From: a virus
Taxonomy: Duplodnaviria; Caudoviricetes
IMG/VR virus record: IMGVR_UViG_3300047160_002318
Location: 4,463 to 68,462 of that record
Length of the DNA stretch: 64,000 nt
Direction: 5' to 3' (one strand)
Shown: piece after piece, positions 47,755-49,981 of the stretch
Layout of the letters: each line of letters starts with the position of its first letter
Numbering within the stretch: the first letter of the stretch is position 1
The notes under the pieces: generated by a model
Told to the model about the DNA's origin: nothing
What the model saw: only the letters and a program-made list of their open reading frames with translations
Databases searched by the model: none
Made by a program: the position numbers and the translations under genes

Positions 47755-47896
47755 GGAGCCAGGGTCCGTTGATGCAGGGACGACCCTCTCAGATAGGTGA
47801 GACCACCTGGGCGATAACACTGACCACATAGCGGCCCTAAACAGCGAGGGGTTTTACAGCCCGAGCATCCTCGTCCGAAGAGCGGACCCTGGCTCC
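47755..47896 (-). ncRNA. candidate structured RNA with perfect 14-bp closing stem
   Basis: GGAGCCAGGGUCCG / CGGACCCUGGCUCC enclosing 114 nt with nested helices (GAUGC/GCAUC, GGGC/GCCC, CCCU/AGGG, AGGU/ACCU). Confidence 0.45.
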
Positions 47897-47908
47897 CACG
47901 TCTATACG

Positions 47909-48325
47909 TCAGTCACACGGGTGGTGCCCCTTGCTGGCGAACCACCGCCTGTGCTTGACGAACTTGACACCGTTCTTCCAGAACCCCCAGGTTCGGATGA
48001 CGCGGCCGGTGAGCAGCACCGTCCAGGCCCCGTCCTCGTCGGGGACCACGGTGTGCTTGTGCAGGGCCGGCCGGTACCGGACGGCGGGGACGCGAAGGTG
48101 ATCCTCGCCGTCCGGGCTCTTGTCGGTGTACCCGCCCTTCACCACGAAAGTGAGGAACCACCAGGGGTGGTCATGGAAGGCGCGGTCGTCGTCCGCCTTG
48201 AGCCAGTGGTGCACGCGGGCCGATGCCCACGGGGTCTCCGCGACCCAGCGGATGACGTAGGGGCACTCGGGCAGGCCCAGCGCCTCGCGCCAGCGGAACC
48301 GCCACCTGGGCTGGTCTTCTGCCAT
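47909..48325 (-). CDS. cupin-fold (cysteine dioxygenase-like) protein
   Basis: RVHHW..DDDRAFHDHPWWF..VVKGGY ... HKHTV; starts 20 nt after the tRNA-like CCA. Confidence 0.75.
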   Translation of the reverse strand: MAEDQPRWRFRWREALGLPECPYVIRWVAETPWASARVHHWLKADDDRAFHDHPWWFLTFVVKGGYTDKSPDGEDHLRVPAVRYRPALHKHTVVPDEDGAWTVLLTGRVIRTWGFWKNGVKFVKHRRWFASKGHHPCD

Positions 48326-48344
48326 GCGTCACCCCCTCAGTCCT

Positions 48345-48423
48345 TGGTGCGCGGGGAGGTGCACAACGCCCCGACTTCTGGCTTATCCGACCAGCGCCCG
48401 TGTGACTTGCGAGCTGCCCGCGC
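48345..48423 (-). tRNA. non-canonical tRNA-Ile(GAU)-like cloverleaf with encoded CCA
   Basis: GCGCGGG CA GCUC GCAAGUCACAC GGGC G CUGGU CGGAUAA GCCAG AAGUC GGGGC GUUGUGC ACCUC CCCGCGC A CCA; canonical arm lengths but no U8, G18G19, U33 or TPsiC loop. Confidence 0.7.
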
Positions 48424-48429
48424 AGGACC

Positions 48430-48457
48430 ATGATAGCACCGGCTTGACTCAAGTCAA
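48430..48457 (-). promoter_or_regulatory. promoter of the tRNA-like RNA
   Basis: TTGACT-N16-TATCAT with TTGAC-TTGA-GTCAA palindrome; the 7th nt after -10 is G1 of the cloverleaf. Confidence 0.8.
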
Positions 48458-48459
48458 AT

Positions 48460-48789
48460 TCAGAGCAGGGCGGCGATGTCCACGGATGCGCCGAGGGTGC
48501 TTGGTATCTGCACGTTCTGGATGACCTTGTTGTCACTGTCACCATCAGGCCCGCTGATCCTCAGTGTAATTGTGTAAGCAAACGGCGGCAGCACGCTGTC
48601 CGTGGTGGGCAGGGTGATGGTGTCCATGACCCCGTTGCGCACGGTGGCGTCGGCTGAGCCGAGGAACACGGCCGGCATGTCGGGGATGTCCACCGGGCCG
48701 TCCGTGCTGAACAGGATGAAGCCGTTGAGCGGGGTTCCGTCCAGCGTGGTAATGGACTGGCCGGTGACCTGAATCATCGTGGCTGGCAT
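48460..48789 (-). CDS. hypothetical, probable virion protein
   Basis: 109 aa beta-rich. Confidence 0.65.
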   Translation of the reverse strand: MPATMIQVTGQSITTLDGTPLNGFILFSTDGPVDIPDMPAVFLGSADATVRNGVMDTITLPTTDSVLPPFAYTITLRISGPDGDSDNKVIQNVQIPSTLGASVDIAALL

Positions 48790-48793
48790 GGAA

Positions 48794-49981
48794 TCACCCG
48801 AATACCGGGGCGGGCACGCCCCGGCCCCGCGCTTGCTCGGCGGCGTCGGCCTGGCGCAGCTGCTCCTGCGACGGGCCGGCGAACTTGCCGCTCCTGTCCA
48901 TGGTCTGTAGCTCCTCGAAGGACCCCGCGCCCTCAGTGTAGGACCGGCGTCCGGGCCAGGGGCCGTGCGCGAAGAACTCCTTGCCGTACCGCTCGACCTG
49001 CTCGTACCGGGTCAGCATGATCCACTGGCTGGCGTCGGGCCAGCGGGGGTGGCCCGGCCCGATTTCCAGCTCCTGGCCCCGGTACCAGACCCGGCCGGCG
49101 AAGGTGAACCCGTCGTTGACGAAGTGGATGACGATGGCCTCGCCGGGGGTCTGCACAATCCGCTCGGGGGCGCGCTCGAACGCGGCGGCTGCGGTGATGG
49201 CGGCGGCGTGCTGCGCGGCCCGGTCCTCCTTCTCCTTCACGGAGAGCTGGCCCTCGGGCTTGGGCGGGGACATGTCCGGCTTGGTCATGGACGGCGAGGC
49301 CATGGGCAGGCCGCAGACGGAGCAGAACATGGTGTTCGGCGGGTTGGGATGACCGAACGCCCCGCAGGGCACGGTGTTGCTCACTGTCAGGACGCTGCCG
49401 GCCTGCGGGAACGGGGAGGCCGCTGCCGCTGCTCCCTGGCTGGCCAGCAGCGCGCGTGCCACGGCGGGCACGTCCACGATCTTTGCGTCCTTGGCGCTGA
49501 TACCAGTCACGGCAGGATGATCGTCACCGAACTTGAGCCGCCAGAGCTGCTTGCGCCGTCCCTGGTCAGGGACCTCATTGCGGGGCCGGTTGCCGTTGGC
49601 CCAGCCGATGGGGTGGGACTGGCGAACGAACCGCCAGCCGCTGGCCTTGAGCGACGTGCCGGGCTCGCTGGCCAGGATGTAGGTCTGCACCCAGCGGAAC
49701 CCCATGGCCTTCGCCGCGCGAGCGCTGGCGGCGTACAGCATGGAGCAGGCGTTGGGGGTGCCGTCCGTCACCAGCCTGACGACCTCCGCGATGAGCTGCT
49801 GGCTGACGCCCTCGGTCGCGCCGCCGACCGGGCGGCCGATGATGGCCGCCCCGTGCGCGGTGCCGTCCTCGTCGAAGACGCCGATGGAGAAGCGGTGCCC
49901 CTGGCTGCGCTTATGGTGCCGGTGCCACTGCTCGACCAGGTCGTTGGCCTGCGCGAGGGTCAGCGGCTCGATGTGCAGCAT
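48794..49981 (-). CDS. XF1762/Mom-like GNAT-fold protein fused to zinc-ribbon C-terminal region
   Basis: LTLAQANDLVEQWHRHH..GHRFSIG..GAAIIGRP..EVVRL.TDG..NACSMLY.A.AR..KAMG...TYIL..E.GTSLKASGW. Confidence 0.65.
   Translation of the reverse strand: MLHIEPLTLAQANDLVEQWHRHHKRSQGHRFSIGVFDEDGTAHGAAIIGRPVGGATEGVSQQLIAEVVRLVTDGTPNACSMLYAASARAAKAMGFRWVQTYILASEPGTSLKASGWRFVRQSHPIGWANGNRPRNEVPDQGRRKQLWRLKFGDDHPAVTGISAKDAKIVDVPAVARALLASQGAAAAASPFPQAGSVLTVSNTVPCGAFGHPNPPNTMFCSVCGLPMASPSMTKPDMSPPKPEGQLSVKEKEDRAAQHAAAITAAAAFERAPERIVQTPGEAIVIHFVNDGFTFAGRVWYRGQELEIGPGHPRWPDASQWIMLTRYEQVERYGKEFFAHGPWPGRRSYTEGAGSFEELQTMDRSGKFAGPSQEQLRQADAAEQARGRGVPAPVFG

Follow-up and report, generated by a model that had tools for sequence, protein, structure and literature searches.

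tRNA mimicry is known from viral 3' ends, from tmRNA, and from a few bacterial mRNA leaders. The paradigm of a tRNA-mimicking translational operator in an mRNA leader is that of E. coli thrS, which mimics anticodon arms only and is bound by the gene's own product, an aminoacyl-tRNA synthetase (aaRS). The tRNA-like structures (TLSs) of TYMV and BMV and tmRNA unite a tRNA mimic with a coding function in one RNA; the plant-virus TLSs stand at RNA 3' ends, the tmRNA mimic is built from both ends, and the roles served are replication and ribosome rescue. Non-proteinogenic tRNAs are exemplified by the Staphylococcus tRNA-Gly on which Fem transferases draw; such tRNAs have free-standing genes and normal anticodon loops, and their partners are GNAT-fold transferases. 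Phage tRNAs with altered anticodon loops evade host anticodon nucleases, as reported in a paper that does not mention position 33 or Ile (eLife 2023, PMC10264068).

Here we analyzed a 64-kb stretch of viral DNA (the window) in which a cloverleaf derived from tRNA-Ile(GAU) stands at the 5' end of a small cupin gene. A literature search yielded no published description of a complete tRNA-derived cloverleaf heading, or lying within, a cupin message. Like canonical bacterial and phage tRNA-Ile(GAU) genes, the window element has 7/4/5/5-bp helices, GAU, a 5-nt variable loop, A73, and CCA. Unlike them, the family to which it belongs has a purine at position 33 and a variable residue at 37 and is either overlapped by a protein gene at that gene's 5' end or fused to it; even its type A members (described below) fall under the Rfam tRNA threshold, and the window element itself replaces U8, G18G19, and the T loop. 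As in thrS, the anticodon-like loop is conserved, and in sister phages the tRNA-like element covers the ribosome-binding region, with the Shine-Dalgarno (SD) sequence and AUG inside the cloverleaf; in the window the SD is 10 nt past it. Unlike in thrS, the mimic is a whole cloverleaf that stems from a real tRNA, the cupin gene behind it is unrelated, and in type A the cloverleaf lies inside the ORF. The element resembles non-proteinogenic tRNAs in keeping synthetase identity elements while losing features used by the translation machinery and differs from Fem-type tRNAs in that the phage RNA overlaps the ORF of its partner, and that partner is a cupin. A tRNA mimic is joined with a coding function in one RNA molecule, as in the TYMV and BMV TLSs and tmRNA, but the phage mimic heads an mRNA or lies within it. 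Finally, the element shares with nuclease-escaping phage tRNAs a phage origin and a non-host anticodon loop, and A33 tRNA-Ile genes with the loop CAGAUAA also occur in arrays away from cupins; the nuclease-escaping tRNAs are, however, decoders with A37 and a canonical elbow, encoded by free genes, whereas the cupin-linked elements have a variable position 37, contain insertions, and are joined to an ORF.

The cloverleaf and its promoter in the window

The IMG/VR record that contains the window is a 68.5-kb virus with 66% G+C that CheckV rates as 45% complete. In a sequencing-run search, pieces of the window recurred letter for letter in several soil metagenomes; the runs listed for the locus were soil DNA runs, with no RNA run among them, and because they carried identical pieces, no informative variants were seen.

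Alignment to a covariance model gave the window cloverleaf helices of 7/4/5/5 bp, linkers of 2 nt and 1 nt, and a 7-nt anticodon loop, with one non-standard pair, in the T stem (Table 1). Canonical residues were replaced by C8, a D loop that lacks GG, G33, and a T loop of sequence GUUGUGC. This geometry is the one described in an earlier note, which had been made from the DNA sequence alone and which also anticipated that standard finders might miss the element. Indeed, ARAGORN found 0 tRNA genes in the 64-kb window, Rfam returned no match at the gathering score on the window (the tRNA model, RF00005, misses the cloverleaf), and a search of 48200-48600 gave no Rfam match even at E<=10. By thermodynamics alone the sequence was unremarkable (MFE z = -0.89), and a rod-like MFE structure (-33.6 kcal/mol) was ~3 kcal/mol more stable than the cloverleaf (-30.9 kcal/mol). 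A covariance model trained on 12 relatives with the window excluded (R1) nevertheless matched the window, once in 64 kb, at 48423..48347(-) with 46.4 bits and an E value of 4.6e-10, and the window cloverleaf aligned column for column with the elements of its relatives. We rejected a chance fold on these grounds, as a model independent of the window gave its sole match there despite the ordinary MFE z. The cloverleaf is very probably a real and selected member of a cupin-linked family.

The cupin promoter was the sole sigma-70-like site in 47800-49000 (1.2 kb; 0.1 expected). It is near consensus, with a spacer of 16 nt between the -35 and -10 elements, and its predicted transcription start is G 48423, the first base of the cloverleaf, 6 nt past the -10 element. 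In 9/10 members of the window's clade (B/C elements, below), 6-7 nt likewise separate the end of the -10 box from cloverleaf base 1, and this conserved spacing lends comparative support to initiation at G1, as the earlier note had proposed. The cupin gene begins 20 nt downstream of the cloverleaf, also as proposed (ATG at 48325; cloverleaf end at 48345).

The palindrome TTGAC-N4-GTCAA, within which the -35 element falls, had 10 matches in the window versus 0.7 expected; exact copies lie at positions 459, 3864, 6152, 10349, 12327, 42134, and 48444, and copies with one mismatch at 883, 28854, and 35825. It also lies over the -35 element of the cupin promoters in three related loci (L184, L189, L008). 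The palindrome probably marks a class of promoter/operator that serves a single dimeric regulator throughout the phage.

Table 1. Features of the cupin locus and its surroundings, in window coordinates.
Feature	Position	Strand	Details or basis
-35 hexamer TTGACT	48457..48452	minus	promoter scan
Palindrome TTGAC-N4-GTCAA, contains -35	48444..48457	minus	promoter/operator motif used across the phage
Extended -10 element TG-n-TATCAT	48430..48438	minus	hexamer at 48435..48430; promoter scan
tRNA-Ile(GAU)-derived cloverleaf, 79 nt including A73-CCA	48423..48345	minus	R1 match; alignment with relatives
Acceptor stem GCGCGGG/CCCGCGC	48423-48417 / 48355-48349	minus	7 bp
Linker C8 A9	between acceptor and D stems	minus	
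D arm	48414-48396	minus	stem GCUC/GGGC, 4 bp; D loop 11 nt, without GG
Anticodon arm	48394-48378	minus	stem CUGGU/GCCAG, 5 bp; loop C-G-GAU-A-A
GAU anticodon position	48388-48386	minus	
Variable loop AAGUC		minus	5 nt
T arm	48372-48356	minus	stem GGGGC/ACCUC, innermost pair a C-A mismatch; loop GUUGUGC
A73 + CCA	end at 48345	minus	
Possible relic uORF, GTG in T loop to TGA 48331-48329	48329..48364	minus	comparison with type B loci
SD-like GAGGGGG	48332..48338	minus	6 nt before cupin ATG; read from sequence
Small cupin, 138 aa	47909..48325	minus	phrog_4786, E 5e-30
142-nt element	47755-47896	minus	just after cupin stop; strong fold, z = -2.8; closing stem ~17 bp
109-aa ORF	upstream of the cloverleaf/cupin locus		
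Mom-like protein, 415 aa	48794-50041	minus	PF25680, E 1.4e-8; phrog_1384, E 1.6e-33

A search for relatives of the 109-aa upstream protein found none. The gene second upstream of the cloverleaf encodes the 415-aa protein, which combines a Mom-like DNA-modification domain at its N terminus with a zinc-ribbon-like stretch; the major capsid gene is also upstream, and a short HNH gene is downstream of the cupin gene. About 90 nt of the 142-nt element recur, with few differences by eye, ~100-200 nt past the cupin stop of L189, and this recurrence, at a locus whose cupin is only ~68% identical to that of the window as a protein, suggests a conserved non-coding RNA or a mobile element. The 142-nt element had no Rfam match.

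The cupin-linked family and its architectures

Twenty-two viral contigs with the same cupin (54-72% identity) had a tRNA-like element at the same place. ARAGORN called the elements of the relatives mostly as tRNA-Ile(GAU), and the family consensus, GUAGCUCAG..GAGCGC..GAGGUCGGUGG, clearly descends from a gene of that kind. A profile of the cupin matched 284 viral loci; among the 80 of these that were fetched, R1 matched ~33 distinct loci immediately 5' of the cupin gene and on its strand. In an alignment of 12 relatives without the window (A2), 97.2% of cells were paired and 13/21 pairs had changed on both sides, 0/500 shuffles were as good, and slid controls were 40-53% paired. Covariation among homologues, which the earlier note had looked to as a check, extends to all four helices. 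Some cupin-adjacent relatives carry insertions of 20-90 nt in the anticodon arm and keep the acceptor/T domain.

In a tree of the cupins, the Ile-type cloverleaf loci grouped in one clade (A+B+C; support 97/97) in which the element was present in 25/25 rows; further, deeper relatives beyond this clade also carry a cloverleaf. Flanking genes vary, with an SNF2 helicase in L182/L183 versus the Mom-like gene in the window, and the differing flanks, together with an element in every row, argue that promoter, cloverleaf, and cupin gene move as one unit. None of 44 gammaproteobacterial chromosomal cupin homologues had a tRNA-like element alongside. A search of cultured phages found only short pieces of the cupin at the DNA level and no cupin relative above 47% identity at the protein level, and in the two cultured records that we examined, CcrPW and prophiGD54-2, a tRNA-like element adjoining the cupin gene was absent. 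By these sequence comparisons, the family is one of phage cloverleaves descended from tRNA-Ile(GAU) that head the same cupin gene throughout. Near some distant cupin homologues (L020/L050, L021/L051, L053, L055, L061-L064) there are tRNAs with a CUA anticodon, which would read amber codons and which ARAGORN labels 'Pyl'.

tRNA genes are frequent integration sites for phages, which then carry a matching piece of the tRNA, and this common habit would be the reason to regard the element as an attP site bearing a copy of a host tRNA gene. We consider this extremely improbable here. The cloverleaf is complete and not a 3' part, it has no canonical tRNA match, differing from any canonical tRNA at positions 33 and 37 and in its loops, it varies in a compensatory manner among phages, and it sits between the Mom-like gene and the cupin gene with a promoter of its own.

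The cupin-linked loci had four architectures, types A to D. In type A, an ATG follows the -10 box by 6-7 nt, so that the mRNA would be leaderless, and a leader peptide, M-x-x-WEPT-x-x-GG[FLV]RR, is followed by the cloverleaf and then the cupin in one open frame. Entropy over the WEPT..GGFRR leader was 0.44/0.25/1.34 at codon positions 1/2/3, a coding signature in which the third position varies. Within the cloverleaf, 1 of 3 frames was free of stops and was the frame in use. From the leader to the CPY codon of the cupin, distances of 138-183 nt took seven values, all multiples of 3, in 11/12 loci, and in L031 and L039, D-loop indels of +2 were offset by +1 in the linker. These triplet distances and compensated indels favor read-through translation and exclude clean excision. 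Accordingly, intron-like excision and ligation of the cloverleaf was rejected, because L031 and L039 stay in frame on read-through but not on exact excision. Two pairs of loci were exceptions to the in-frame rule: L016/L044, where in L044 the leader frame passes the cloverleaf in another frame and meets a TAG just past it, and L009/L032, where in L032 the leader contains a stop but still has a GGGGCC..GGCUCC hairpin across its codons. In L037 (1264-1545), two tandem tRNA-like units follow a WE.T..GGFRR leader, and the frame is open through both into the cupin.

Type B loci, the closest relatives of the window, are without this leader, and their promoter would fire at base 1. The called proteins start with M[FL]R..PSRTKGSGKGKW, from an ATG within an expanded T loop; the 3' strand of the acceptor stem encodes the residues PSRT, and the SD is a GGAGG in the variable region, so that SD and AUG are both inside the cloverleaf. 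A conserved TKGSGKGKW follows just past the ACCA, without a start of its own. Type C, the window, has the type B layout, with what is probably the decayed T-loop start, a GTG-led run of 11 codons that shares the frame of the cupin ATG and stops one codon before it. This frame is a possible relic of the T-loop start of the sister phages and could still couple translation. The cupin start of the window is displaced 22 nt downstream relative to its sisters; its SD is ~10 nt past the cloverleaf, and SD and ATG are both within 10-22 nt of the encoded ACCA. In the cupin tree, B+C (support 96/87) was nested in type A, with the window within B, and the 'elbow-less, starts-at-G1' state is therefore derived; we take type A to be the ancestral form within the A+B+C clade. 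The earlier note's report of a lost elbow thus holds for the window but describes a trait of one derived sub-clade, as most relatives retain U8, A14, GG, and a near-canonical T loop.

Type D loci are deep relatives with more canonical tRNAs of Val or other type that have G33. In three of them (L049, L052, L082), all with canonical elbows, a cupin ATG that has no SD lies 2-3 nt past the end of the tRNA-like element. These loci are what might be expected if the cloverleaf were only 'punctuation', a site at which RNase P, RNase Z, or RNase E processing gives the cupin mRNA a defined and nearly leaderless 5' end. For the family, this explanation is decidedly improbable. Types A and B, with a start codon ahead of the cloverleaf or within it, leave no room for it; L031 and L039 would lose their frame on exact excision; and the window would start its transcript at base 1, has lost the elbow, and has an SD of its own.

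Lost decoding features and retained constraint

Over distinct ARAGORN calls in the cupin loci, base 33 was a purine in 16/17 cupin-adjacent tRNA-like elements and in 2/51 other tRNAs of the same loci. Base 37 was A in 2/17 of the former and 42/51 of the latter; across the 17 cupin-adjacent elements it was G in nine, T in five, C in one, and A in two. A database-wide pattern search for Ile-type loops with a purine at position 33 gave 32 matches, of which 21 were cupin-linked, and the remainder resembled ordinary array tRNAs with A37 kept. The Rfam tRNA model passed type D relatives only, not types A or B. Judged by these features, the cupin-linked cloverleaf is not a decoding tRNA.

Phage tRNA-Ile(GAU) genes with A33 (loop CAGAUAA) that are otherwise canonical, including A37, were seen in L150, L152, L153/L181, L155/L166, L169, L170, and L177. 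Some are in tRNA arrays and none adjoins a cupin gene; these may be decoders with a nuclease-resistant loop.

Constraint in the window's own clade was evident in three ways. First, in an alignment of 10 B/C elements (A4), 95.7% of cells were paired and 12/21 pairs had changed on both sides, counts that are somewhat inflated because A4 was fitted to the structure of the model. Second, the C32-N-GAU loop and the 3' ACCA were invariant in 10/10 members. In the B/C clade the region 5' of the T loop is untranslated, as is the entire cloverleaf in the window, so coding does not explain this conservation; invariance in a largely untranslated stretch points to sequence-specific recognition of the loop and the ACCA end. 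Third, the loop oddities of the window are not private to it: its D loop (GCAAG..) recurs in L187 and its T loop (GUUGYG-like) in L182, L183, and L184, which marks them as shared characters and not as private decay. The window cloverleaf is, on the evidence of its helices and loops, still under constraint.

These results bear on whether the element is a functionless relic, an old tRNA-Ile gene captured as a promoter and N-terminal coding sequence and kept by those overlapping constraints only. The cupin tree, which gives vertical co-inheritance from a more tRNA-like ancestor, the progressive loop decay in the window's clade, and the unremarkable thermodynamic z-score all agree with a relic. 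The untranslated acceptor, D, and anticodon helices, however, still pair through two-sided changes, and C32, GAU, and ACCA are invariant at 65-77% protein identity, by which neutral sequence would be scrambled. We therefore regard a relic as quite unlikely. The earlier note's argument against random decay survives the comparison, with helices kept by compensatory changes both in the clade and in the wider family. A near-canonical tRNA-Ile-like gene does occupy this place in relatives, a finding that the note had counted against its own reading if joined to uncompensated decay; the changes in the window are instead compensated and shared with relatives. The note's claim that Ile identity elements were kept stands in part: C32 and G34-A35-U36 are invariant in the clade, whereas A37 varies across the family, and A73, which the clade retains, is absent from a minority of the relatives.

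The cupin protein and possible roles of the cloverleaf

PHROGs names the cupin family 'cysteine dioxygenase', and the window cupin had no match in Pfam. In an alignment of the family (A1), the histidines of FHDHPWWF and HxHT, Cys21, and a C-terminal GHHPC are invariant columns, which suggest a metal site. An AF2 model (pLDDT 81) was that of a generic small cupin; its best PDB match was the Mn cupin TM1459 (E 9e-6, TM 0.57), no PDB relative was found at the sequence level, and the Atlas lead was a weak CDO only. Bacterial homologues adjoin genes for P450, carotenoid oxygenase (RPE65), and SnoaL proteins, neighbors from which the cupin is probably a small-molecule enzyme and unlikely to bind tRNA, and the simplest autoregulatory model is thereby removed. 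A cupin that acts on tRNA likewise found no support, given the generic model, this genomic context, and the weak CDO lead.

We tentatively favor, at somewhat less than an even chance, a model in which the cloverleaf is a leader of the cupin mRNA that mimics a tRNA and acts in cis. A strong phage promoter would start transcription at or next to G1 in the window, and the mRNA 5' end would thereby be buried in the acceptor helix. The cupin would be translated from its own SD and ATG past the encoded ACCA. The fold would be recognized by a host tRNA-binding factor that reads C32/G34-A35-U36 and the acceptor end, for which IleRS is the obvious candidate, although a guess. Folding and binding would set the amount of cupin mRNA that is translated or survives, either of them competing with translation. 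Features specific to the ribosome (U33 and A37 and, in the window's clade, the D/T elbow) would have been discarded. The observations behind this model are homology, covarying helices, obligate linkage to the cupin gene, promoter spacing, and frames in the relatives that are compatible with translation. Among the roles listed in the earlier note, a tRNA-like leader of the cupin gene is accordingly the one favored, as in the clade the element always accompanies that gene and, in sister forms, contains its start codon or is read through; nothing in our analysis spoke for a decoy, an anticodon-nuclease target, or an effect on RelA.

Three points weigh against action in cis. First, a stabilizer in cis needs, by itself, no conserved GAU loop or ACCA, and a released RNA recognized by an aaRS fits at least as well. 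Second, the rod-like fold is more stable than the cloverleaf, and folding of the whole window leader revealed no clear structure that sequesters the SD, leaving an SD/anti-SD switch without support. Third, the cupin, with its small-molecule context in bacteria, is an unlikely tRNA binder.

The main rival is a mimic that works in trans and off the ribosome, an RNA that is released, recognized by IleRS, perhaps charged, and used as an amino-acid carrier, cofactor, or decoy together with the cupin enzyme. We judge it somewhat unlikely. GAU and the acceptor end are kept while U33 and A37 are lost, with A73 present in the clade and most relatives; ACCA is encoded at the exact tRNA 3' end in 10/10 clade members; and relatives with large anticodon-arm insertions retain the acceptor/T domain, all as expected for such a mimic. 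Type D elements pass the Rfam tRNA threshold and have the cupin ATG 2-3 nt past the tRNA end, so one transcript could yield both products, and in the window the SD and ATG are outside the cloverleaf, so release would leave the mRNA intact. In types A and B, however, tRNA-style 3' processing would sever the cupin ORF from its start codon, and frame continuity is selected. The canonical D/T elbow, on which RNase P, RNase Z, the CCA enzyme, and most aaRSs rely, has been lost in the window's clade. Moreover, the partner is a plain small cupin with no known aminoacyl-tRNA-dependent fold (Fem/GNAT, CDPS, or LanB-like), and its bacterial homologues have no tRNA link.

A further reading is a transcript with two fates, built around a tRNA-Ile mimic that the ribosome cannot use but a synthetase can recognize. 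Selection would act on one stretch of RNA both for the cloverleaf and for its use in coding or initiation, and each molecule would either be handled as a 'tRNA', by binding or processing, or serve as the message for the cupin. Through this competition the phage would couple cupin production to the state of the host IleRS/tRNA-Ile pool; in another version, the transcript would yield a charged carrier RNA for the cupin. We think this reading unlikely.

We found no description of a complete tRNA-derived cloverleaf that is selected at once as an RNA fold and as a 5' leader, start site, or in-frame coding sequence. Because tRNA finders miss or miscall these elements and gene callers extend the cupin ORF through the cloverleaf, the annotation of phage genomes is affected. 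If a synthetase or another tRNA-binding factor does read the mimic, as the favored cis model supposes, then phages would have a new way to sense or exploit the host translation apparatus, and a function would be in view for a widespread and uncharacterized cupin family that spans >280 viral contigs and 308 protein clusters.
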